The notes under the pieces were generated by a model. It ran no database searches. It was not told the DNA's origin and was given only the letters and a program-made list of their open reading frames with translations. This document shows, one piece after another, positions 1,516 to 54,674 of a DNA stretch of 64,000 nt. A program made the position numbers and the translations under genes. Every line of letters begins with the position of its first letter. Within the stretch, counting starts at the first letter, position 1. This DNA comes from a phage. The DNA lies in NCBI GenBank assembly GCA_038450185.1, contig GCA_038450185.1_4765.1; one strand, 5' to 3'.

Positions 1516-3567
1516 TTACATTTTAAATTTATCTGGCATTGCGTCTACAGATACCAGATCAGCGATAAGCTGACGTAGAGTTGCCTTATCTGCTTTCTTA
1601 CGTTCGGTTTTAGCTTCGGTAATAAAGCTGGAGAAAGACAGGTCAGAAGCAGGTTTAACAACACCTTCACGGATGAATGCATCACCGTCCGCGATCATCT
1701 CGCCAGATTCTTGTAATGCTGCCAGTTCATTTTTGTTCATAATATGTGCCTCAATGTAATAAGTTTCTTGTGAATCCGTCGATGCCGTAGCACGAGTTAC
1801 CGTATCAAAGGATAACACAACACCGCGAGGAAGTAAAATCTCGCATTCTTTGTAAGCAAATGCTTTGTTACCTACTGGCAATACAGGGATGTTTTCCGCG
1901 CCAGCAATGGAGAAAGCAACATTAGCGCCACCTTCACCGCGAGAGCCAGCCATAGAATCAACACCAGCAACGGCACTAGCCACGTTTGCATTCCAGCCGC
2001 CAAAAATGTTAGGTGCAAGGGAAGTGCTCACATAGTTTTTAAAGTAAAACGCTTTTTGCTTACGTGCAGTTTCCCACATTTGAGACCGGAAGTCCATACC
2101 ACGATACAGAATAGTACCCGGATCAAGTTTAACACCATAGTTAGAGAAGGCATTATCCAGTGCATCGCACATCTTGACCAATTCTTCTGGATCTGCGATA
2201 CCATCAAATTCTTCCAGCTTACGGTCGGTTAGGAAGTTGTTCATATTGATGTATGCTGCATCCGCATATTCGCTCAACACAAAACCTTCCGCACCTGGCA
2301 GATCAAGATCAATATCTGCCATCATTTCACCCATGTTGCTAGCAATTGCTTCAAACATACCGGAAGCAACATTACGTAGGGCATCGGTTTTAATCTGGGT
2401 GATATGACTACGCAGCATTTCAGCTTTTACATCTGCTGGCATAGACTGGTCTACTCGATCCATTGCCAGGGCGGTGATCTTGTTTTCGAATACTTCCTCG
2501 CTCATGATTTCTTTTAAGCGTTTGATTGATGCTGCGATAACTTCCGCAGACAACGGATCATATTGATCCTGAACTTTTACCAGTTCGCTTACTGCGTATT
2601 TTGCATCGGCTTCGCTTTCAAAAATAGTACGCATGAAACCATAGCGAGTGATAATATCACTTGTCCAGTCATTCAGAGAACGGGCGGTTGAACGTTCTAA
2701 GGCTTGACGGTCAATCAGAGTATTAAACTGTTTCTTAGGTTCGGCTTCGGTGATATCTTCTTCCGGTTTAAGATTAATTTTTTCTGGATGATTCACATAG
2801 TCGCTGTTATAGGTCGCTTGAGTTTTCAGCATTTCTTCTTTAGTCAAACGAGATTTAGCCGCTACGCGTTGTTCCGCTTCCGCGTTTCGTTCTTCTTCTG
2901 ACACAAGACTAGCCGCATACGCCTCATCTTTAGTCAGAGATTCACCAGTAGCCTTAGATACCCAGCGATCACCTAAATCACTTTCTACTTTAGTGAACAA
3001 GGATTCATCAAGTTTAATCCCTTTAATCTTATCAATCGCCATCCCGCGACGCTTGACAACAACTAAAGCGATCTTTTTGCTGGTCATTACTTCCTGCTGG
3101 AATACTTCAAACTTCGGTGTACGACGCACCAAACGCTCTATAACGCGCTTAACCAGTTCGGTCTTACCTTTCATGCGGGATACGTTAAAACGGAACATAA
3201 CAGCGTCTAATTGCGCTTTACGGGCTGTTTCCATAACCACATCAAAAGCACTTGACATAACTGCAATCGGGTTATCGCCTAGACCATTTTTAAGCTGTAC
3301 AATACGACCGCTTTTGTTCATTTCGCACAGTACAACATGTGCGGTCTTGTCACCCATACGAATGATTTTAGGTGTTTTGTTGGTGAAGTTACAAAGACGG
3401 ACAATCACATCTTTATCGCGTGTCTGTACTGCAAAAAGCTGTTTAGGATTCTGCTTAGGCTTTAAGCACTGTACCGGAGCAATACTGCCAAAGTTTTCTT
3501 CCTCTTCCGTCAACAGCCATTTCTCGAAAGATTCAATCATTAGATCGTCGATTTCTAAGTTAAACAT
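1516..3567 (-). CDS. alt: ADP-ribosyltransferase Alt (virion internal protein)
   Basis: 683 aa, close to the recalled T4 Alt length (682 aa); motifs ILYRGMDFRS, YVSTS, KECEILLPRG; position next to the ligase region as in T4. Confidence 0.7.
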   Translation of the reverse strand: MFNLEIDDLMIESFEKWLLTEEEENFGSIAPVQCLKPKQNPKQLFAVQTRDKDVIVRLCNFTNKTPKIIRMGDKTAHVVLCEMNKSGRIVQLKNGLGDNPIAVMSSAFDVVMETARKAQLDAVMFRFNVSRMKGKTELVKRVIERLVRRTPKFEVFQQEVMTSKKIALVVVKRRGMAIDKIKGIKLDESLFTKVESDLGDRWVSKATGESLTKDEAYAASLVSEEERNAEAEQRVAAKSRLTKEEMLKTQATYNSDYVNHPEKINLKPEEDITEAEPKKQFNTLIDRQALERSTARSLNDWTSDIITRYGFMRTIFESEADAKYAVSELVKVQDQYDPLSAEVIAASIKRLKEIMSEEVFENKITALAMDRVDQSMPADVKAEMLRSHITQIKTDALRNVASGMFEAIASNMGEMMADIDLDLPGAEGFVLSEYADAAYINMNNFLTDRKLEEFDGIADPEELVKMCDALDNAFSNYGVKLDPGTILYRGMDFRSQMWETARKQKAFYFKNYVSTSLAPNIFGGWNANVASAVAGVDSMAGSRGEGGANVAFSIAGAENIPVLPVGNKAFAYKECEILLPRGVVLSFDTVTRATASTDSQETYYIEAHIMNKNELAALQESGEMIADGDAFIREGVVKPASDLSFSSFITEAKTERKKADKATLRQLIADLVSVDAMPDKFKM

Positions 3568-3611
3568 TTTATATCCTCTAGTTGATAACCTATAAACCTA
3601 TATTTATGAAA

Positions 3612-3635
3612 ACGGGGCTTAACGCCCCCTTTTTA
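3612..3635 (-). terminator. hairpin terminator
   Basis: GGGGCTTAACGCCCC stem-loop with flanking T-run. Confidence 0.45.
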
Positions 3636-3848
3636 TTATAATGCACCATCAAGCAATTGCTCTAAGGTGTATCCTGAATAGTCTTTTTCAATCAGGATAT
3701 ATTTTCCTACTCGTTTAATACAACCACGCATTTCAACGTATTCTGCGTAGTTGATGGTACGAGTTGTTCCATCTTCCAGTAATGCAGTACCGATTTCGTT
3801 AATGCGGTCATAAGTTACGTCGGTAATGATGATTTCGATGTTAGCCAT
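3636..3848 (-). CDS. hypothetical small early protein (70 aa from ATG)
   Basis: Track ORF 3636..3899 starts at an upstream GTG inside the promoter; internal ATG is preceded by AAGGAG. Confidence 0.5.
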   Translation of the reverse strand: MANIEIIITDVTYDRINEIGTALLEDGTTRTINYAEYVEMRGCIKRVGKYILIEKDYSGYTLEQLLDGAL

Positions 3849-3884
3849 TTGATACTCCTTAGTAGTTCGTTTCGGTATGTGTGC

Positions 3885-3913
3885 ATTATAGGGGATCACC
3901 GATCCCCTGTCAA
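3885..3913 (-). promoter_or_regulatory. sigma70-type early promoter, TTGACA-17-TATAAT, palindromic spacer
   Basis: -35 TTGACA and -10 TATAAT read on the minus strand; spacer GGGGATCACCGATCCCC. Confidence 0.6.
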
Positions 3914-3920
3914 CAACTTT

Positions 3921-4475
3921 TTAGTTATTTTTTAATTGTTCATCTTGCAATAATGCAATCACATGCTGGCGATGTTCTTCCGATTGAGGTACACCGAAAA
4001 AGTTTGTTTTGTAGAAATACTCTAATCGGTCTTCTCGTGTGCTCTCTTCCATCATGATCGCGGGTAGTCCGAGATTTCGGAAACGTCGCTTTTCTGCTGG
4101 CGTAAAATCACTGTAATACAACATAGAATCATCATTACAAGCAATGCTAAACTCATCCTTCATAAAGGAGAATATTGCGTTTAAACGCTGTTTACCGTCC
4201 ACGATTTCGATCTCATAGCGAGAGCCATCATCAATCTTAGCCATTGCGATAGCACCAACCGGAAAATCATTAATCAGGTTTTCGATAAACATACGTTTGT
4301 TTTCGGTGTCCCATACTAAAGGACGCTGATAATCTGGGTTCATGTTGATATAGCCATCTTCTAACCATGCTTCGTAAACAGAGATGACAAAGTTTTTAGT
4401 ATTGGTATAGTAACGGCGTTTAGGCGTTAAACGGTTCATGTTATAGTCTCCTGAATGGATCATCACGTAAATCAA
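3921..4475 (-). CDS. DUF262 (ParB-like, GmrS-type) domain protein
   Basis: Motifs PDYQRPLVW and IVDGKQRLNA typical of the DUF262 N-terminal domain of GmrSD-type enzymes; alternative ATG at about 4439 right after the upstream stop. Confidence 0.6.
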   Translation of the reverse strand: MIYVMIHSGDYNMNRLTPKRRYYTNTKNFVISVYEAWLEDGYINMNPDYQRPLVWDTENKRMFIENLINDFPVGAIAMAKIDDGSRYEIEIVDGKQRLNAIFSFMKDEFSIACNDDSMLYYSDFTPAEKRRFRNLGLPAIMMEESTREDRLEYFYKTNFFGVPQSEEHRQHVIALLQDEQLKNN

Positions 4476-4773
4476 TATCTTTTAAGAACTCATCCCATGA
4501 ATGGCGGATATTGTTCTTAATTCTCCAGATGAGCGCAGGGATTGAACGCTCTCCCATCTGGAAGTATGGATCATATGATCCGTATGCCCAATATGCTACT
4601 ACAATTCCACAATCAGAGCAATAGTATTCTATTTCACTTGCTGGCGACCAAAGTCCATCAATATGATCGGTGATCTTGCTTTCGATGTTATGGCTATGGC
4701 AATCAGGGCAACGGATGCAATGACCTTGTTTGTCGTAATTTGACGTTAGAGAATACTTAAACAATCTCATCAT
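4441..4773 (-). CDS. Cys/His-rich zinc-binding protein (110 aa)
   Basis: CxxC..CxH and CxxC clusters; translationally coupled to both neighbours. Confidence 0.45.
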   Translation of the reverse strand: MMRLFKYSLTSNYDKQGHCIRCPDCHSHNIESKITDHIDGLWSPASEIEYYCSDCGIVVAYWAYGSYDPYFQMGERSIPALIWRIKNNIRHSWDEFLKDIDLRDDPFRRL

Positions 4774-5486
4774 AGATCCTTATTGGCTTCAAATACTGCC
4801 TTTGCGAATCCTCGCGGGGTAAGCGACCTGATAGTCTTTGTTCTGGTTCCTTTCCCGCCTAGCTTAGAATGCTGTTTACTGTACCCTTTATTAATCTGCA
4901 AAGGTTTCTTTTCTGGCATTATAAAGCCTTGTCCGGTCCATAAGCAAGTCTTTTTTGGGTACATATCACGGGCGGCAATATACTCAGGAAACGTAGGATG
5001 CTTATCATCTTCCGGCAAATAACCGCCATATTCCCACGGATGGAACATATAATCAGGCTTACGCCACATGCTAGAGATAACGCTTACAGGATTCTCTATC
5101 ATGTAGGGAACTCCTAGCCATTCACCCAAATAAGCGGTTATTTTAGCTGCCCGTACATCATGAACTTGAATCAATGGTCCTTGTCCTCGTTTCTTTCGTT
5201 CAAAGTGCGCAGCGCCACTAACAGCTAAATTGGTGCACGGTGGGAATGCAAAGATAATATCCGGTTTCCCCCATTCAAGGTCCATTGCTCTTTCCAGCCA
5301 ATTCAAATCAATCCATGTGTTTACATAAGTAATGTTTGGATGTTCAAATCGGGTATTATACTTTTTGTATGTGCCGTGATCGCCATCGTCAGCATTAAAG
5401 CAGATCACCTTATGACCTTCTTTAGCCCATTCTAGCCCCATTATCCCCGATCCGTCAAAGTTGCAGAATATTAATTTTTGTTTCAT
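4770..5486 (-). CDS. compact C5-cytosine-methyltransferase-like protein (238 aa)
   Basis: Motif I-like FCNFDGSGIMG, motif IV-like IFAFPPCTNLAVSGA (Pro-Cys), motif VI-like ENPVSV, possible motif IX RSLTPRGFAKA; too short to hold a normal target recognition domain. Confidence 0.5.
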   Translation of the reverse strand: MKQKLIFCNFDGSGIMGLEWAKEGHKVICFNADDGDHGTYKKYNTRFEHPNITYVNTWIDLNWLERAMDLEWGKPDIIFAFPPCTNLAVSGAAHFERKKRGQGPLIQVHDVRAAKITAYLGEWLGVPYMIENPVSVISSMWRKPDYMFHPWEYGGYLPEDDKHPTFPEYIAARDMYPKKTCLWTGQGFIMPEKKPLQINKGYSKQHSKLGGKGTRTKTIRSLTPRGFAKAVFEANKDL

Positions 5487-5728
5487 ATACGCCCCTTTAA
5501 TCCAACACAGATTTTAGAAGGTTCTTTGCCGTGCCACATTAAGTAAAGTCCGTTAATGCGGCCTTGTTTTGTATATGATTCTTTTCTGATCTTCTTATAG
5601 TGTCGTGTTTCCTCAACTGATTGTTTAGAATACCAATCATAAAGGAAGAGGCACAAAGGCCAACCATTAGCGGCCTTAATGCAGTTATTAAGAAATTCCT
5701 TATTGCGTTTAATTAATTTTCTTTTCAC
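5483..5728 (-). CDS. hypothetical protein (81 aa), operon member
   Basis: 4-nt overlap with both neighbours. Confidence 0.45.
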   Translation of the reverse strand: MKRKLIKRNKEFLNNCIKAANGWPLCLFLYDWYSKQSVEETRHYKKIRKESYTKQGRINGLYLMWHGKEPSKICVGLKGRI

Positions 5729-5976
5729 GCTGCCCCCATTGGTTTGATAGTAACAGAATCTAAAAGACCTTTGTTAGCCAGTTCGCGGCAAGTTTTCAGA
5801 TCCGCAACTTCCCAGCCAGCCGCAATCAGGTTGTCAATGAGGCTGTTAGCAACTTCTTCGCTCATGAAAGAGCACTGTTTGCCGATGGTGTAGCGTACAC
5901 GCTGTAATTTCAGTTTACGGAAGCCTTTAACGTTCAGGTCTTTAGCGATTTTCTTTGCGGTTTCGATGTTAGCCAT
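5725..5976 (-). CDS. hypothetical protein (83 aa), first gene of operon
   Basis: ORF behind the promoter at about 6017-6045. Confidence 0.5.
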   Translation of the reverse strand: MANIETAKKIAKDLNVKGFRKLKLQRVRYTIGKQCSFMSEEVANSLIDNLIAAGWEVADLKTCRELANKGLLDSVTIKPMGAA

Positions 5977-6016
5977 TGTTTGATTCTCCTAAGTGGTATC
6001 TCGTCTTGATGGTTGT

Positions 6017-6045
6017 ATTGTAGGGGAGTTATCCTCCCCTGTCAA
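6017..6045 (-). promoter_or_regulatory. sigma70-type early promoter, TTGACA-17-TACAAT
   Basis: Spacer GGGGAGGATAACTCCCC is an imperfect palindrome. Confidence 0.5.
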
Positions 6046-6059
6046 CACTTTTTATAAAA

Positions 6060-6227
6060 TTATTTGTTAATTTCTGGTGCGTTGCTCGGATAGTAACCTT
6101 CTTTAACACCCAGATATTTTGCAACCATCCCTACAATCTTCTGTGCTACTACAATGTCAAATTTCAGATAATCTTCGCCGTGGGTTTCAATGATATATGC
6201 TTCACATGCTGCTTTAGTCTCGAACAT
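6060..6227 (-). CDS. hypothetical small protein (55 aa), paralog of 9803..9970
   Basis: C-terminus HGEDYLKFDIVVAQKIVGMVAKYLGVKEGYYPSNAPEINK nearly identical to the second copy; track start is upstream of the promoter. Confidence 0.55.
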   Translation of the reverse strand: MFETKAACEAYIIETHGEDYLKFDIVVAQKIVGMVAKYLGVKEGYYPSNAPEINK

Positions 6228-6260
6228 TTTGATTCTCCTATTTCGTTTCGTTATGTGTGT

Positions 6261-6290
6261 ATTATAGGGGATCGGTGATCCCCTTGTCAA
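6261..6290 (-). promoter_or_regulatory. sigma70-type early promoter, TTGACA / TATAAT
   Basis: Spacer palindrome GGGGATCGGTGATCCCC. Confidence 0.55.
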
Positions 6291-6305
6291 CAACTTTTTT
6301 TAAAA

Positions 6306-6587
6306 TTATTCGTGATTAGTTTCGATGTTGTGCATTTTGCACCAGTTCAGCCAGTCGCCCAGATCTTGATAGTTGATGCTTTTATCTGCTGCCATCGTTT
6401 TTGTCTTGATACCCATATGTGCGTTATGAGTAAGCATTTTTACAGTGAACTCGATTTTATCGCCTTTAGCTTTAACATCAACCAGTTTGGTCCACTGGCT
6501 ACCAGCGCCGCGAATGTTCATACCAACGATGTTTCCGATGTATGCTTCTTTGTTTTTCAGGATTTCGGTTGCTTTGATGAATTTCAT
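6306..6587 (-). CDS. hypothetical early protein (93 aa)
   Basis: ORF behind its own promoter. Confidence 0.5.
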   Translation of the reverse strand: MKFIKATEILKNKEAYIGNIVGMNIRGAGSQWTKLVDVKAKGDKIEFTVKMLTHNAHMGIKTKTMAADKSINYQDLGDWLNWCKMHNIETNHE

Positions 6588-6620
6588 TTTTGGTTCTCCA
6601 GTTCGTTTCGGTATGGGTGT

Positions 6621-6649
6621 ATTATGCTATGTTCTTACTTTGGTGTCAA
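6621..6649 (-). promoter_or_regulatory. sigma70-type early promoter, TTGACA-17-CATAAT
   Basis: -35 and -10 hexamers on the minus strand. Confidence 0.5.
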
Positions 6650-6657
6650 CAACTTTT

Positions 6658-6927
6658 TTAGATATTTTCAGAAATAAATTTTAAAACTTGACGTAAATGT
6701 TTCTCATCTTTGATAGTCGCCGGAAGTTCTTCTTTTACTTCCTGTGCAAGATAGATATTTCCGTTCCAAGTGAAAGATCCGTCTTCGTTTACGCGATAGC
6801 TGAACATCCACTCGCAATCATTTTCGATTTCATATACACACAGAAGGGTGTAATCGTTAAAGCTAGTGATTTCAAGGTCGAAGCCGTGACGTTTTGCAAA
6901 GTTGGTAGTGGTTTTAGTCAGAGCCAT
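6658..6927 (-). CDS. hypothetical early protein (89 aa)
   Basis: ORF behind its own promoter. Confidence 0.5.
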   Translation of the reverse strand: MALTKTTTNFAKRHGFDLEITSFNDYTLLCVYEIENDCEWMFSYRVNEDGSFTWNGNIYLAQEVKEELPATIKDEKHLRQVLKFISENI

Positions 6928-6967
6928 TGTTTGATTCTCCTAAGTGGTATCTCGTTTCGATGTGTGT

Positions 6968-6996
6968 ATTATGCTATAGGCCGGATCTGGTGTCAA
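6968..6996 (-). promoter_or_regulatory. sigma70-type early promoter, TTGACA-17-CATAAT
   Basis: -35 and -10 hexamers on the minus strand. Confidence 0.5.
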
Positions 6997-7002
6997 TGCC
7001 TT

Positions 7003-8230: not shown

Positions 8231-8259
8231 ATTATGCTATACACCCAACCTCATGTCAA
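8231..8259 (-). promoter_or_regulatory. sigma70-type early promoter, TTGACA-17-CATAAT
   Basis: -35 and -10 hexamers on the minus strand. Confidence 0.5.
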
Positions 8260-9738: not shown

Positions 9739-9802
9739 TTTGATTCTCCGTTTGTTGTCTTGATGGGAGTATATTACTACTCCCTTTAATCATTGTCAAC
9801 TA

Positions 9803-9970
9803 TTATTTGTTAATTTCCGGTGCGTTGCTCGGATAGTAACCTTCTTTAACACCCAGATATTTCGCAACCATTCCGGTGATCTTCTGTGCTACTACGATAT
9901 CGAATTTCAGGTAGTCTTCACCGTGGTTTGCTACAATGTATGCTTCGCATTCTGCTTTAGTCTGGAACAT
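9803..9970 (-). CDS. hypothetical small protein (55 aa), paralog of 6060..6227
   Basis: About 90% nucleotide identity to 6060..6227 by eye; same promoter type. Confidence 0.55.
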   Translation of the reverse strand: MFQTKAECEAYIVANHGEDYLKFDIVVAQKITGMVAKYLGVKEGYYPSNAPEINK

Positions 9971-10003
9971 TTTTGATTCTCCTATATCTCGTTGGTATGT
10001 GTG

Positions 10004-10033
10004 CATTATAGGGGATCACCGATCCCCTGTCAA
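10004..10033 (-). promoter_or_regulatory. sigma70-type early promoter with GGGGATC..GATCCCC spacer
   Basis: Near-identical to promoter at 3885..3913. Confidence 0.55.
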
Positions 10034-10041
10034 CAACTTTT

Positions 10042-10344
10042 TTATTCTTCGTCTTTATCTTTATATGCGTATTTCATAAATTTGTCTGCTACTTCATCGG
10101 CATGTTCCGATTCTACGTCGGATTCGAGAACAATAGCAAGATCGGTTTCGTCGTTTCCGTCATACCAATGATTATGAGTATCGTTTTCTTCGATATAGAA
10201 TGAGTCATTTGGAGTTGGACGACAATATACATCTAAATTCTCATCGATGTAAAAGATCCAATCTTCGTAAAGAATAACCGTATTAGCCAGATTTTTATTG
10301 CCTTCAACGAAAGGTTCAGCTACAAATAGCTTAGTTTGTTCCAT
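10042..10344 (-). CDS. small protein, HxHW paralog family member (100 aa)
   Basis: IFYIDENL...THNHWY...LAIVLESDV motif; trimmed to internal ATG. Confidence 0.5.
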   Translation of the reverse strand: MEQTKLFVAEPFVEGNKNLANTVILYEDWIFYIDENLDVYCRPTPNDSFYIEENDTHNHWYDGNDETDLAIVLESDVESEHADEVADKFMKYAYKDKDEE

Positions 10345-10928: not shown

Positions 10929-11108
10929 TTACATAACAATCACGCCAGCCGTTGAAAGTTGATGTTTCAACTGAGCATTTTCTGCTACTGTCAAATCAAT
11001 GATTTCTTGTGACGCTGCAATCATATAGCCATTGGTGATATTGTTTTTCATCAGTTCAATGGTTTCTTCGTTGTAGCGGATTTTAGCGATGATTTCGTTG
11101 AAGTTCAT
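10929..11108 (-). CDS. hypothetical small protein (59 aa from internal ATG)
   Basis: Track ORF start lies upstream of the promoter; trimmed. Confidence 0.4.
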   Translation of the reverse strand: MNFNEIIAKIRYNEETIELMKNNITNGYMIAASQEIIDLTVAENAQLKHQLSTAGVIVM

Positions 11109-11142
11109 AATTGATTCTCCTAGTTCGTTTCGGTATGTGTGT

Positions 11143-11171
11143 AGTATAGGGGATCGGTGATCCCCTGTCAA
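11143..11171 (-). promoter_or_regulatory. sigma70-type early promoter with GGGGATCGGTGATCCCC spacer
   Basis: -35 TTGACA, -10 TATACT. Confidence 0.5.
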
Positions 11172-11184
11172 CAACTTTTTTGAA

Positions 11185-11661
11185 TTATTTTTCTTTATGC
11201 TCGCGCTCATACTTTTCGAAATAAAATTCTACTGGCTGGTCGTGGATTGACAGTAAGCCAAAGCGTTTAGCCGCTCGCAATCCCATATTGCGCTGAATGT
11301 ACTTCTGGAAGTTCTCGCGTATACACTTACGCCAGTATTCTAAGCCCATACAGCTTTTATAAAGATTGCATTGCACACATGCCGGATTCATGTTATCAAG
11401 TATATCATGCTCCGGTTTATGCATTCCTACAACCTTATACTTCCACGATCCATCATCATTACGGGCAATTCGTCCATTTTCATCATAGACTACCTTTGAG
11501 CGTCGCAATACTGGTTTGATGTGGTCTGCGTGCCAGCGATCCCCTAGTTCCTCGCCACAATAGGCACAACGTCCACCATATTTCATTTTCAGGATCTGGC
11601 GTTGCTCTTTCTTTGACAATTTTTTAGGTTTAGGGGCTTTCGCCCCTTCATTATCACACAT
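11185..11661 (-). CDS. HNH endonuclease
   Basis: CAYCGEEL...WHADHIKP HNH motif plus C-terminal CVQCN; overlaps the ligase 3' end by 8 nt. Confidence 0.55.
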   Translation of the reverse strand: MCDNEGAKAPKPKKLSKKEQRQILKMKYGGRCAYCGEELGDRWHADHIKPVLRRSKVVYDENGRIARNDDGSWKYKVVGMHKPEHDILDNMNPACVQCNLYKSCMGLEYWRKCIRENFQKYIQRNMGLRAAKRFGLLSIHDQPVEFYFEKYEREHKEK

Positions 11662-18966: not shown

Positions 18967-19253
18967 CTTGATACTCCTTAGTTGTTTTGGTATGGGAGTA
19001 TCTTACTACTCCCGTGATATGCTGTCAACTGCTTTTTTATGCAACCGCAAACATCAACATTTGAACATTCTTGGCTGTCTGGCTTTCAAAGTTCTGACAT
19101 TCTTTGATAATGTCCTCTACTTTCTCGCCGGAGATCTCCGCGTAAGTTTCGATTGCCATTTTCAGTACCGCGTCAAAGTTGTTCATTTGATTCTCCTTAA
19201 AGTGTATTTCGTTTCGATGGGGGTATATTACTACCCCCGTTTCATGCTGTCAA

Positions 19254-19505: not shown

Positions 19506-19534
19506 ATATTACTACCCCCGTTATTCAGTGTCAA
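19506..19534 (-). promoter_or_regulatory. sigma70-type early promoter, TTGACA / TAATAT
   Basis: -35 and -10 hexamers on the minus strand. Confidence 0.45.
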
Positions 19535-21871: not shown

Positions 21872-21939
21872 AATAAAATCCTCACTTGTTTTTGATGGTT
21901 GTATTATAGCGGGGATTTCTCCCCGCGTCAACACTTATT

Positions 21940-45743: not shown

Positions 45744-45813
45744 AATATATTCCTCAATGTTTTGTCTTGATGGGAGTATCTTACTACTCCCTTAATCCGG
45801 TGTCAACTACTTT

Positions 45814-45969
45814 TTAAATTTCTTCTACAGTAAAGTCTTCAATGTTGTTGTGCTCGGCGAACGTTGCCAGACCAGCATTCCATGCATCATCCTCAGAGAA
45901 GAATACACCGTAACGTTCATATCCTTTAGCGCCTTCAAATTTAACCATTAATTTGTGAGTATGTTTCAT
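45814..45969 (-). CDS. hypothetical small protein (51 aa from internal ATG)
   Basis: Track ORF start lies across the promoter; trimmed. Confidence 0.35.
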   Translation of the reverse strand: MKHTHKLMVKFEGAKGYERYGVFFSEDDAWNAGLATFAEHNNIEDFTVEEI

Positions 45970-46000
45970 TTTGATTCTCCTTCGTTGTCTTGATGAGTTC

Positions 46001-46029
46001 ATTATAGGGGATCGCAGATCCCCTGTCAA
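46001..46029 (-). promoter_or_regulatory. sigma70-type early promoter with GGGGATCGCAGATCCCC spacer
   Basis: -35 TTGACA, -10 TATAAT. Confidence 0.55.
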
Positions 46030-46041
46030 CTATTTTTTAAA

Positions 46042-46323
46042 TTATTTTCGCCATTCACCGGAAACAATGAAGTTTGTAAAGTGATTGTGGTCCGTGATAA
46101 TGTCATTAAGTACCATATGCGGATATGCTTTAGTGTAATCACGTTTACGATCAGTCATCCAACCAACGAAAGTCGGTGCAAAGTACGGCACACCGTCAGA
46201 TGATGCCATATTAAACCCTTTATCAGCCATAAATGCAGCCGCCCTAAGATTTTTAATTGAAGTAGTGCGACTAATTTCAAAAACTTTATCGGTAAAATTC
46301 ATTTTAAACCCCCACTCGTGCAT
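46042..46323 (-). CDS. hypothetical protein (93 aa)
   Basis: ATG-initiated ORF. Confidence 0.4.
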   Translation of the reverse strand: MHEWGFKMNFTDKVFEISRTTSIKNLRAAAFMADKGFNMASSDGVPYFAPTFVGWMTDRKRDYTKAYPHMVLNDIITDHNHFTNFIVSGEWRK

Positions 46324-50640: not shown

Positions 50641-51642
50641 TTAGTAATGGCTAAAACCTTCGGTTACATCTTCAACCACATAGTAACGATGACAGCGCAT
50701 TTTGGCATTCGCATAATCTTTCGGGATACTTACAACGTGACGCGGATCAACTTTGCATTTAATGATTCGGCCTCGCCCACCGCCATAGTGCGGAATATAG
50801 TGTTTCGCTGCAACGTGGAGGCCATTAGAGCAAGTGCGATCATCATCTGGGTCCACGTCTTTACGCTTCATTTTAACCGTGCGCCCTGGGCTATTATCAA
50901 ACGTATGCGTAAAGAAATCTTTATAATCAACATCAACACGTTTCCATGCATAGAAACAACCATCTTCCCCGATCTCAATGTCGTTGTGCTCTAAGAAGTC
51001 AAACAGACGATCTACGGCCTTACGGCTAGGGTTTTTCTTGCACTTCTCAAAGAAGTTCAGATAGTGCGTATATGGCTTATTCTCTTTAATCGACTCCACC
51101 ACTCGACGAGTCAGATTATTATCAAGAACAATATTATGATAATACACAATACCATTTTCGATACGGAAAGCACCGTGATAATATACTTCAACCGCTTTCT
51201 TAATGTCAATCAGCGTAATAGCTTTGATGAAATCATTATGTTTAATCGCTTCCAGTGCTTCATTAAAGTTAACATGTGATGGGTCAGCAGTATAAACAAT
51301 GTCACCACATGTAATAGTAATAAATTTAGATGAGGCTATTGCTACGATTTTTGAGGAAGTAGTCACGGGCTTTTTTGCGCGTTCACCGCCTTTTCCTTTA
51401 CTGGTTTTACGGCGTGCTTTACGGTTTTCCAGTGCCTTGCGACCTTCCGCTACTGCGTCTTTCTGAATCAGTAATACACGAGAGGCAGTGCGACGAGATA
51501 CACCGAATGCTGCCGCAAGTGCTTCGCGGGTAGTAAACTTACCTTCGCCCCACTGTTTAGCCAGTTTGATTTGTTTTGCGGAGTCCAGACATTGAACGTT
51601 ACGGTCAGAGACGGTGATTTTTGCTTTAGTCATATTATTCAT
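50641..51642 (-). CDS. rIIB: rIIB protein
   Basis: 333 aa; SQKAVSRLFDFL, YFYAWK, HTFDNSPG, VDPDDD, DYANAKMR, YVVEDVTE match T4 rIIB. Confidence 0.85.
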   Translation of the reverse strand: MNNMTKAKITVSDRNVQCLDSAKQIKLAKQWGEGKFTTREALAAAFGVSRRTASRVLLIQKDAVAEGRKALENRKARRKTSKGKGGERAKKPVTTSSKIVAIASSKFITITCGDIVYTADPSHVNFNEALEAIKHNDFIKAITLIDIKKAVEVYYHGAFRIENGIVYYHNIVLDNNLTRRVVESIKENKPYTHYLNFFEKCKKNPSRKAVDRLFDFLEHNDIEIGEDGCFYAWKRVDVDYKDFFTHTFDNSPGRTVKMKRKDVDPDDDRTCSNGLHVAAKHYIPHYGGGRGRIIKCKVDPRHVVSIPKDYANAKMRCHRYYVVEDVTEGFSHY

Positions 51643-51695: not shown

Positions 51696-51827
51696 TTATT
51701 TTGCTTCTACAACCTTGCGGATTGTGCGGTCTGATACATTATAGATTCGTGCCAGTTCGCCTTTAGTCAAGCCGCGAGCGTATTGTTTACGGATGGTTTC
51801 TTTCTGGATAGCGGTCAGTTTAGTCAT
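51696..51827 (-). CDS. small helix-turn-helix protein (about 43 aa, below track cutoff)
   Basis: ORF MTKLTAIQKETIRKQYARGLTKGELARIYNVSDRTIRKVVEAK with SD AAGAGGTGA; sits between rIIA and rIIB. Confidence 0.45.
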   Translation of the reverse strand: MTKLTAIQKETIRKQYARGLTKGELARIYNVSDRTIRKVVEAK

Positions 51828-51838
51828 AATATCACCTC

Positions 51839-53944
51839 TTAAAATTTAACATTCTTAACCAGTTTCATAAAGTCTTGTGCGCGTTTGTCGTTATGCAGAA
51901 TACGATACCAGTTATCTACAATATCATACAGTAACGGGCTATTCTCTTTAAACTTCGCACAAACTGCTTTAATTCGTTCGTTTGCTGCCGTGAATTTTTC
52001 ATCACAAATCTTTTTAGTTTCTTCGTCCATAATCCAACGAGTACGAAGGAGTAACTTGGAAACCTCTTTATTATAATGACGACCGTACAGTCTGTCAATA
52101 AATTCTGGAATACAGCGTTCTAGTTCATCGTCATGAAACAACATAGTGATCACACCCAGATATTCGCCATACCCCAGATGATTGGTCTTAACCTTCTTAG
52201 CCAGACCAGCCAGCTTACCGCGAACAAATTCTAGCGCACATTCCAATTGTTCGTCAACGAGATATTTTTGTGTCTCGTTTCTAGTAATAATATACTTTGT
52301 TACCCCGAAGTAGTCAAGCGCCGTGTGTAATGTATTTTCACTATAGATCGATTTACGACTACGGCTTTCGAATGCATCACCTACGCGGAACATGTGCAAG
52401 CCTGATAACTCGCGAATCTCTGCCGCTTTCATGTGATGGCTGGTTTTATGCCAACTGTCACCAATCTTTTCCATGATATACACGTTAGGCAGCTTGGGAG
52501 TCGCTTCACGTTGTGTGCTCGGTCTTTCCGGTTTAACTGCTTTAGCACGCAGATCATCGGCCTCTGATACCTTAATCACGGTCATTTCAGAATCATCATA
52601 ATACTGTTTGATGTACTCGAAAGTCTCCATATGTTTTTCGTTGTTCTGACGGAACACCAGTACCTTTTTATTGATGCCGTATTCTTGGACCATGCCGTTA
52701 AGAGTCAGTGCACGCAGTTTCGGTTTATCAGTATCATCAATAAGACACGTAATATCTTCTTTATGCATCCATACAAAATGCGTAATGTTGTATTGACTGC
52801 TAACGAAAGCAGGGCGCAATTTGCTGATTGTGTGACGAGTACGATACAGAGTATACACCTGACCTTCTACGTCATTTGGCGAATCTTTACCCGCATTCAC
52901 AAACTTATTATAGGTTGCTACCGGATCATCCCACTGCCCGATCTTACCCATCTTGCTAATAATATTGCGTTGAGTCGATGAATACTCGCTCATAAATTGC
53001 GCAAGTTTACGCTCTGTTTTAATGTTGGCGATCTTTTCTTTAACCTTTTCCAACATCATTTCATTGATTTCTGCAATGCGTTTTTCGATGTTCGCTTTAG
53101 TCTCAATTGACAAGTGAACTTCTTCACGCGATGGCATCAGGTCCAGATCACCCAACTCAAAACTAATGTAAATGGTCTGGTGCTGGCGGTTTACAGCTTC
53201 TAACCATGTTCCGCGAACATATTCATACGGGATCGGATACTGGATCTTACCCATGATTGCATATACTACATAGGAATCGTTATCACGCCCATTACAAACA
53301 TAATAATTATCAAAGCTAGGGAAATAATTAATTTCGATTGCATTGATATTCGGTTTGTGTTCCCCAAAATGACGCAGTACAAATTGCGCTTCTCGATGCC
53401 ATGTCTGAATGTCTTTTTCTTTCACCGGAATAGTGATTTTCAGACCGTTGTCTTCATAGGTCGGTTCGTCGAAAATCTGCACCATTTTCGGAATAGAGTT
53501 TTGCACAAATGCAGTAAAGCCATAAGCGCGACCATTGTAGTAGTTTACGATTGTAAAGGTGTCAGTATAGCTATAAGCAGACTTCGCACCTAAACCAAAA
53601 GATCCGATATAATCATTAGTCTGGTCTTTGGTTGATTCAAAGTAAACAGTAAACAGTTGTTCTAATTCTTTCTTAGACGGAATACCCGTACCATAATCAC
53701 GCACAGAGAAATAAGGTTCAATTGCGGTAGGCAAATGAATATCAAACGGACGATCTAAGGTTCCGGCTTCTTTGTGGGTGTCGGTAGCATTACATGAATA
53801 CTCACGGACACAAGCACGTTCACAATATTGATAAGTGTTCTTAGAAAGCACCATAAAAGCCTTGCTACTTGCTTTCAGAGAAAAATCAACCGCACCGCTC
53901 AAGTCACTGCCAAATACTTCTTCATTATCAATATGCATTTTCAT
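51839..53944 (-). CDS. rIIA: rIIA protein
   Basis: 701 aa; YIGSFGLGAKSAYSYTDTFTIVNYYNG matches T4 rIIA. Confidence 0.85.
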   Translation of the reverse strand: MKMHIDNEEVFGSDLSGAVDFSLKASSKAFMVLSKNTYQYCERACVREYSCNATDTHKEAGTLDRPFDIHLPTAIEPYFSVRDYGTGIPSKKELEQLFTVYFESTKDQTNDYIGSFGLGAKSAYSYTDTFTIVNYYNGRAYGFTAFVQNSIPKMVQIFDEPTYEDNGLKITIPVKEKDIQTWHREAQFVLRHFGEHKPNINAIEINYFPSFDNYYVCNGRDNDSYVVYAIMGKIQYPIPYEYVRGTWLEAVNRQHQTIYISFELGDLDLMPSREEVHLSIETKANIEKRIAEINEMMLEKVKEKIANIKTERKLAQFMSEYSSTQRNIISKMGKIGQWDDPVATYNKFVNAGKDSPNDVEGQVYTLYRTRHTISKLRPAFVSSQYNITHFVWMHKEDITCLIDDTDKPKLRALTLNGMVQEYGINKKVLVFRQNNEKHMETFEYIKQYYDDSEMTVIKVSEADDLRAKAVKPERPSTQREATPKLPNVYIMEKIGDSWHKTSHHMKAAEIRELSGLHMFRVGDAFESRSRKSIYSENTLHTALDYFGVTKYIITRNETQKYLVDEQLECALEFVRGKLAGLAKKVKTNHLGYGEYLGVITMLFHDDELERCIPEFIDRLYGRHYNKEVSKLLLRTRWIMDEETKKICDEKFTAANERIKAVCAKFKENSPLLYDIVDNWYRILHNDKRAQDFMKLVKNVKF

Positions 53945-54617: not shown

Positions 54618-54674
54618 CCTTTTGTTTTCGATGGGGATATTATGATATATCCCCGATCCAGTGTCAACAGATTT

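Follow-up and report, generated by a model that had tools for sequence, protein, structure and literature searches.

Early promoters with GATC-containing palindromic spacers in a Krischvirus genome are copies of published promoter-early stem-loops

Five promoters with a palindromic spacer and their gene cassettes

The DNA analyzed here (referred to as the window) is a 64-kb stretch of a phage genome of about 164 kb. On sequence identity, we assign the window to a Krischvirus (RB49-like, T4-type) genome: its positions 3000 to 7000 are 98.6% identical to Shigella phage Sf20 and to a Krischvirus RB49 assembly, and 97 to 98% identical to about 50 other Krischvirus genomes. A search of the window for the palindrome GGGGATCNNNGATCCCC, allowing up to two mismatches, returned five matches, all of them perfect (3891-3907, 6267-6283, 10011-10027, 11149-11165, and 46007-46023). 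Shuffled sequence gave a mean of 0.05 matches, and five or more were found in 0 of 100 shuffles. Every copy of GGGGATC-N3-GATCCCC lies on the minus strand and occupies the spacer of a consensus sigma-70 promoter (5/5 for both).

Three of these promoters, all read on the minus strand, have the form TTGACA-N17-TATAAT (3885-3913, 10005-10033, and 46001-46029). A fourth, on the same strand, is TTGACA-N17-TATACT (11143-11171), and the promoter at 6261-6290 (minus) is TTGACA-N18-TATAAT, with an additional A ahead of the palindrome. Scored against the consensus hexamers, the four sites with a 17-bp spacer reach 12/12 (three sites) or 11/12 (one site), and the site with the 18-bp spacer reaches 12/12. 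The loops between the palindrome arms, read on the plus strand in site order, are ACC, GGT, ACC, GGT, and GCA, and each palindrome contains two GATC sites 7 bp apart. An initial annotation of this DNA had described palindrome promoters with a TTGACA -35 and a TATAAT-like -10 element at five or more sites; the window-wide motif scan confirmed these promoters and found exactly five. The loop sequences and the two GATC sites per palindrome are as the annotation read them at all five sites. Its coordinates were correct for four sites, while the third begins at 10005 rather than 10004, and the promoters are read on the minus strand. The palindrome had also been placed exactly between the -35 and -10 elements, which is accurate at four sites but not at 6261-6290, where the extra A lies beside the -35 element.

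The promoters are embedded in cassettes that have about 80 bp in common, comprising an upstream stop codon, AAAAAAGTTG, the promoter, CACACATACCGAAACGAA, AGGAGAATCAA, and the ATG of an ORF of 51 to 70 aa. At all five sites the 40 nt upstream of the promoter read ...TAA(N)AAAAAAGTTG, an AT-rich tract with the upstream stop codon. The upstream ORFs end at 3921, 6306, 10042, 11185, and 46042, which places the hairpin 25 to 35 nt past the upstream stop codon. On the other side of the promoter, an AGGAG sequence is found 4 to 11 nt ahead of the ATG, the ATG is 31 to 36 nt past the -10 element, and the downstream ORFs are 51 to 70 aa long.

Cassette 1 (3846-3923, minus) starts at the stop codon of a 184-aa ORF with a GmrSD_N domain, followed by an A-rich tract. 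It continues with TTGACA at 3913-3908, the palindrome GGGGATCGGTGATCCCC at 3907-3891, TATAAT at 3890-3885, and a 5' untranslated region with an AGGAG Shine-Dalgarno sequence, and it ends at the ATG (3848) of a 70-aa ORF. In cassette 2 (6225-6308, minus), TTGACA at 6290-6285 is followed by the additional A, the palindrome GGGGATCACCGATCCCC at 6283-6267, and TATAAT at 6266-6261; this cassette leads into a 55-aa ORF (6060-6227). Cassette 3 (9968-10044, minus) has TTGACA at 10033-10028, the palindrome GGGGATCGGTGATCCCC at 10027-10011, and TATAAT at 10010-10005, and leads into another 55-aa ORF (9803-9970), which is paralogous to the one that follows cassette 2. Cassette 4 (11106-11187, minus), with TTGACA at 11171-11166, the palindrome GGGGATCACCGATCCCC at 11165-11149, and TATACT at 11148-11143, separates an upstream HNH-endonuclease ORF (11185-11661) from a 59-aa ORF (10929-11108). 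Finally, cassette 5 (45967-46044, minus) contains TTGACA at 46029-46024, the palindrome GGGGATCTGCGATCCCC at 46023-46007, and TATAAT at 46006-46001, upstream of a 51-aa ORF (45814-45969).

Several other features of the window were recorded alongside the cassettes. The 184-aa ORF upstream of cassette 1 (3921-4475, minus) matches the N-terminal GmrSD/DUF262 domain only (72.6 bits). A 238-aa ORF nearby (4770-5486, minus) is annotated as a C5 or DNA methyltransferase in relatives and has an FPPC motif; it gave no Pfam match. Both ORFs belong to the hyperplastic region and may act in anti-restriction or modification. The tetranucleotide GGCC is strongly underrepresented in the window (31 observed versus 72.5 expected, ratio 0.43), and AGCT, GCGC, CCGG, and GTAC have ratios of about 0.7 to 0.75. 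These low values are consistent with restriction-site avoidance by a phage with unmodified cytosine. Farther along, a 43-aa ORF (51696-51827, minus) lies between rIIA (51839-53944) and rIIB (50641-51642). It encodes a stand-alone helix-turn-helix (HTH) that is also similar to sigma-70 region 4. The N-terminal part of the rIIB ORF is similar to it.

Relation to the published promoter-early stem-loops

Elements of this kind have been described before. Arbiol, Comeau, Kutateladze, Adamia, and Krisch (2010, Genome Biol Evol 2:140; PMC2839356) reported about 50 promoter-early stem-loops (PeSLs) in each of the phages RB49 and phi1. Each of these elements joins an AT-rich tract that holds the upstream stop codon to a sigma-70 consensus promoter, a polyG/polyC stem-loop, and a Shine-Dalgarno sequence with a start codon (PMC2839356). 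Five subclasses were defined by the position of the stem-loop, and the subclass with the stem-loop "between -35 and -10" is among the two commonest (PMC2839356). In a later study, Comeau et al. (2014; PMC4122927) described the stem-loops of RB49 and phi1 as G(N)-loop-C(N).

We compared the window with the RB49 genome (AY343333). The core at 10005-10033 equals that of RB49 PeSL206/205, and cassette 3 is identical to PeSL206/205 from GTTGTTGACA to the ATG. Similarly, the core at 11143-11171 equals that of RB49 PeSL210/209, as does the downstream half of cassette 4. RB49 PeSL211/210 reads GGGGATCACGTATCCCC, which is one stem base and the variable loop away from the palindromes of the window. All five cassettes have the promoter, the AT-rich upstream region with a stop codon, the stem-loop, and the Shine-Dalgarno sequence followed by a small ORF, and the genes that flank them are annotated as "hypothetical protein" in RB49, GEC-3S, JSE, and phi1, as expected of the hyperplastic region. 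The five promoters are therefore copies of published PeSLs of the "between -35 and -10" subclass, and as such they were already known. The initial annotation was right to recognize a sigma-70-type family of early promoters with a true stem-loop-forming inverted repeat in the spacer.

The cassettes of the window and the PeSLs of RB49 and phi1 come from the same genus and share architecture, sequences, stem form, and association with ORFan insertions and deletions, and we found no structural difference between them. What differs is the description: "GATC" and "palindrom" have zero occurrences in the PeSL papers, whereas the commonest stem carries two GATC sites, and those papers make no mention of the 3-nt loop in both orientations. 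A literature search on Krischvirus promoters and terminators returned nothing beyond the PeSL papers. When an 85-nt cassette was used as a query, it matched 59 phage records, all of them Krischvirus, at 6 to 10 places per genome, and the exact motif was present in only 2 contigs of IMG/VR. This confinement indicates that the motif is a genus-specific repeated element.

The window also contains promoters with hairpins of other sequence or position. Two spacer hairpins have no GATC site. One, at 6017-6045 (minus), reads TTGACA GGGGAGGATAACTCCCC TACAAT, has a predicted hairpin of about -13.6 kcal/mol, and is identical to RB49 PeSL191/190. The other, at 21903-21931 (minus), reads TTGACG CGGGGAGAAATCCCCGC TATAAT (CGGGGAGAAATCCCCG), has a hairpin of about -15 kcal/mol, and is kept in GEC-3S and OZ035808. 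Both belong to the same PeSL subclass as the GATC cassettes. In about nine promoters of the window, a hairpin between a G-run and a C-run overlaps the -10 element instead of the spacer; this class includes the sites at 9771-9799, 19000-19028, 19225-19253, 19506-19534, 45778-45806, 54639-54667, and 8231-8259, an example being GGGAGT-AGTAAGAT-ACTCCC. The -10 hexamer lies inside the hairpin loop here, and the stem is followed by sequences such as AUCAAGAC rather than by a U-rich tail. Hairpins of -10 kcal/mol or below occur at 16 of 68 promoter-like sites of the window and in 22 of 300 random windows (p = 3e-4); we used this threshold since a cutoff of -6 kcal/mol was uninformative, with 67 of 150 random windows passing it. 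Separately, a canonical terminator of the form (A)GCCGACCTTAGTGTCGGC(T) plus a T-run occurs twice (7534-7515 and 7030-7013, minus), each time just upstream of a TTGACA...CATAAT promoter, and both arrangements resemble the PeSL subclass whose stem-loop precedes the -35 element.

Conservation of pairing and the GATC sites

To identify what is conserved in these elements, we added the hyperplastic regions of another 12 Krischvirus sources, giving 13 sources in all. Together they hold 73 copies with the stem-loop in the promoter spacer, every one of which is predicted to fold (-9.2 to -14.9 kcal/mol). Two GATC sites are present in 47 of these copies, one in 7, and none in 19. The loops vary across copies and include GGT, ACC, GGGA, ATC, TGC, GCC, and TGT. 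In the window, the stem formed by AGGGGATC and GATCCCCU has 8 bp and a predicted energy of about -12.8 kcal/mol, and it appears in both the minimum free energy and the centroid folds of 101-nt contexts. Upstream of the ORF209 orthologues, nine sources have GGGGATC-(ACC/GGT/GGGA)-GATCCCC or a variant with one GATC, and four have GGGGAG-GTTAAA-CTCCCC instead. An A-to-G change in the 5' arm (GGGGGTC...GATCCCC) is found in RB49 PeSL187/186, phi1 PeSL193/191, and JK32 PeSL206/205; in these variants a G.U pair still forms in the sense RNA, but the DNA dyad and one GATC site are lost.

We also looked for compensatory changes within the stems. In a MAFFT alignment of the "between" subclass the variable-length loops fell out of register, and pair counts were made on the fixed-length class with the hairpin over the -10 element only. 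The 19 distinct sequences of that class are 100% paired, with one stem pair present as A-U (13 sequences), G-C (5), or G-U (1). An automated count of mismatches over all promoter hairpins gave 7 G.U versus 11 A.C, most of the A.C cases coming from unrelated elements or from pairs added spuriously at the outer end of the stem. Recounted by eye within the core stem, there were 4 G.U (3 in the spacer class and 1 in the class overlapping the -10 element) and 0 A.C, a suggestive asymmetry with numbers too small for significance. Inside the GATC subclass there is very little covariation, the copies being recent paralogues homogenized by recombination. Since stems are swapped at orthologous sites and hairpins extend over the -10 element elsewhere, the conserved feature is the pairing, that is, the hairpin, and neither GATC nor a fixed sequence at a fixed place. 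This pattern fits an RNA hairpin in read-through transcripts and not a fixed duplex operator, although the degree to which GGGGATC is conserved could also mask a factor that reads the sequence itself.

Conservation of pairing bears directly on the first function suggested by the initial annotation, in which the palindrome is an operator for a dimeric repressor or activator. A perfect dyad between -35 and -10 occupies the classic operator position, and every copy we found sits inside a promoter. In addition, the PeSL authors speculated that the GGGG...CCCC stem-loop could be bound by a recombination protein (PMC2839356). We therefore considered a dimeric protein that binds the duplex palindrome either as a regulator of early promoters or as a factor that targets PeSLs for recombination. 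The swap of GGGGATC/GATCCCC for GGGGAG-GTTAAA-CTCCCC at orthologous positions, with a different loop, speaks against it, as do the variation of the loop in length and sequence and the tolerance, in three phages, of the A-to-G change that breaks the dyad while keeping a G.U pair. The location of other PeSL hairpins over the -10 element, including in other promoters of the window, or upstream of the -35 element argues in the same direction. The 43-aa ORF at 51696-51827, which had been named as a candidate repressor or activator, does appear HTH-like (CENP-B_N, 26 bits), but it is a generic HTH that nothing links to the motif, and no cognate protein was identified. A sequence-specific operator is thus not supported, and we regard binding of the duplex by a dimeric protein as improbable.

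A second suggestion was that the GATC sites form a methylation switch. The E. coli host has Dam, and two GATC sites 7 bp apart are present in each of the five promoters; methylation could in principle couple promoter activity to replication, through SeqA on hemimethylated sites or through altered promoter strength. Known Dam-sensitive promoters and spacer operators resemble the elements of the window in having a dyad between -35 and -10 and GATC sites, but at orthologous sites the window elements and their relatives keep the pairing and not the sequence. Moreover, 26 of the 73 copies are short of one or both GATC sites, and the hairpin is always retained. The window as a whole shows no enrichment of GATC, with 353 sites and an observed/expected ratio of 1.03. 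The nonpalindromic promoter cores show none either, as 9 of 63 contain GATC and 9.0 are expected by chance from genome density. The sites in the palindromes lie in the spacer, outside the hexamers, and among ORFs of 120 aa or more in the 64-kb window of the approximately 164-kb genome, none has the DPPY motif of an adenine methylase. These observations leave a Dam switch very hard to credit. In our best reading, the GATC sites are incidental to a ..ATC/GAT.. stem allele, which may have spread among the cassettes via recombination and gene conversion.

The third suggestion was a cruciform. Extrusion of the palindrome in supercoiled DNA could alter the geometry of the -35 and -10 elements and with it promoter activity, or could provide a substrate at which nucleases of the endonuclease VII type start recombination. 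The inverted repeat is perfect, and orthologues differ by inversion of the loop from GGT to ACC, which suggests that a hairpin mediated template switching at the DNA level. Arms of 7 to 8 bp with a 3-nt loop are nonetheless short, on general grounds, for stable extrusion. The G.U-only variants are also mismatched on the complementary DNA strand. From the published work, stem-loops on a single-stranded template block sequencing without betaine, which speaks for structure in DNA, while the extreme strength of cloned promoters (about 13,000 Miller units for PeSL206/205) speaks against a disruptive structure (PMC2839356). Taken together, the balance makes cruciform extrusion highly implausible.

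More broadly, we have little confidence that the GGGGATC...GATCCCC dyad is read as double-stranded DNA by any phage or host factor, be it a recombination-targeting protein or SeqA and Dam acting on hemimethylated sites. If it were, early-promoter shut-off or cassette shuffling would be coupled to a specific protein-DNA interaction, and the GGT-to-ACC flips would be traces left by hairpins or cruciforms that had arisen in vivo as intermediates.

Proposed roles in read-through transcripts and cassette shuffling

The explanation offered in the PeSL literature (PMC2839356) is that the hairpin is a terminator or attenuator of read-through RNA and the cassette a recombination linker, and we consider this explanation probably correct for the elements of the window. 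In outline, the approximately 80-bp cassette links the stop codon of one small early gene with the start codon of its downstream neighbor, and its consensus sigma-70 promoter would be recognized early in infection by the unmodified RNA polymerase of the host. Transcription from this promoter is expected to start downstream of the hairpin, and the palindrome would be absent from the promoter's own transcript; thus, the hairpin should form only in read-through RNA. A transcript arriving from the upstream gene would contain an RNA hairpin of 8 bp and about -13 kcal/mol, followed by UAUAAU, the RNA copy of the -10 box. This hairpin may terminate or attenuate read-through and so insulate each small gene cassette.

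The weak point of this model is the sequence that follows the stem. Intrinsic terminators of E. coli and phage T4 likewise have a GC-rich RNA hairpin of about -13 kcal/mol at the 3' end of a gene, but the hairpins of the window lack a U-run and are followed by UAUAAU only, whereas canonical terminators are present nearby (7534-7515 and 7030-7013). The tail after the stem reads UAUAAUGC (TATAATGC), which does not contain a canonical U-run. A terminator scan demanding at least five T in eight bases called none of the five sites and did call other hairpins in the same region. Terminator activity has been reported for one reporter construct in one paper, in which the PeSL211/210 stem-loop lowered lacZ expression to an extent "comparable with" rrnB T1 (PMC2839356). 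The drop in lacZ could also reflect RNA processing. That every GATC-type hairpin terminates transcription, and the way in which it would do so, is inferred.

These considerations bring in a variant of the same model, in which the RNA hairpin is real and serves mainly as a stabilizer of 3' ends, a barrier to processing, or a pause site for polymerase. Such a role would account for the lack of a canonical U-tract past the stem, for the sequences such as AUCAAGAC that follow the stems overlapping the -10 element, and for the position of the hairpin 25 to 35 nt beyond the upstream stop codon. The knockdown by the PeSL211/210 stem-loop, on a par with that of rrnB T1 (PMC2839356), argues against it, and we consider this variant unlikely, though it stays in play.

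The second half of the preferred explanation, a cassette that serves as a recombination linker, is illustrated by the genome comparisons. Insertion or deletion breakpoints relative to RB49, JSE, GEC-3S, or OZ035808 are found at four of the five sites. We relied on the clean breakpoints against these four genomes, as greedy chaining of breakpoints lost some high-scoring pairs for phi1 and LF73P4. At 3885-3913, RB49 and JSE are 211 bp longer (ORF186). At 6261-6290, RB49 is 537 bp longer (ORFan192), and ORFan192 is also missing from phi1 (PMC2839356). At 11143-11171, RB49 is longer by 769 bp (ORF210 and ORF211), JSE by 744 bp, and OZ035808, a second RB49 assembly, by 340 bp. The window itself is longer at 46001-46029, by 273 bp relative to OZ035808 and by 489 bp relative to GEC-3S, with one edge at the element. 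Cassette 1 is a chimera, with an upstream part matching RB49 PeSL187/186, a downstream part matching PeSL186/185, and the crossover in the common CATACCGAAACGAA. The association with breakpoints and the chimera match the published model of modular shuffling by PeSLs, and mini-circles are reported in the literature to form between PeSLs. Near-identical repeats of about 80 to 100 bp, present many times in the hyperplastic regions, would act as patches for homologous recombination, through which the ORFs that they flank could be deleted, inserted, or swapped.

Other traces of rearrangement were seen around the cassettes. The 55-aa ORFs at 6060-6227 (MFETKAACEAYII...) and 9803-9970 (MFQTKAECEAYIV...), both on the minus strand, are paralogues, and window positions 6059-6297, which hold the first of these ORFs and its cassette, are 86.8% identical over 242 aligned columns to the RB49 stretch orthologous to the second 55-aa ORF and its cassette, from which it follows that gene and cassette were duplicated together. 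The HNH-endonuclease ORF (11185-11661, minus; 27 bits) occupies the spot of the missing RB49 ORF210 and ORF211. The length of the spacer drifts between 17 and 18 bp at 6261-6290 and at orthologous sites in phi1, JK32, and GEC-3S, through one-base changes in the G-run (GGGG, GGGGG, or GGGGGG) or an extra A or T beside the stem; this homopolymer slippage is either tolerated by the promoters or tunes them.

Read on the minus strand, the 3-nt loop is GGT in some cassettes and its exact reverse complement, ACC, in others, a flip seen among paralogues within the window (3891-3907, 6267-6283, 10011-10027, and 11149-11165) and also among orthologues. In the PeSL210/209 orthologues of JK32 (about position 6525) and Brandy (about 6406), the flipped loop is the sole difference, and GCC and GGC loops are found at orthologues of the 46007 site. 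These flips look like loop inversion by template switching at a hairpin, like gene conversion among cassettes, or like a combination of the two. Loops that differ as exact reverse complements are likewise known from small hairpin-loop inversions flanked by short inverted repeats, in noncoding chloroplast DNA and in template-switch models. The phage elements differ in that both loop orientations coexist among paralogous cassettes of one genome, and therefore gene conversion can spread a single flip.

PeSLs give T4-type phages a means of reshuffling small accessory genes that each bring along a promoter and an insulator. The window illustrates this shuffling anew, as four of its five sites are deletion or insertion joints relative to close relatives. 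Beyond the PeSL papers, our analysis adds that the GATC sites are incidental, that the hairpins are without canonical U-tracts, and that the loops flip, and it leaves the overall picture of these elements unchanged.
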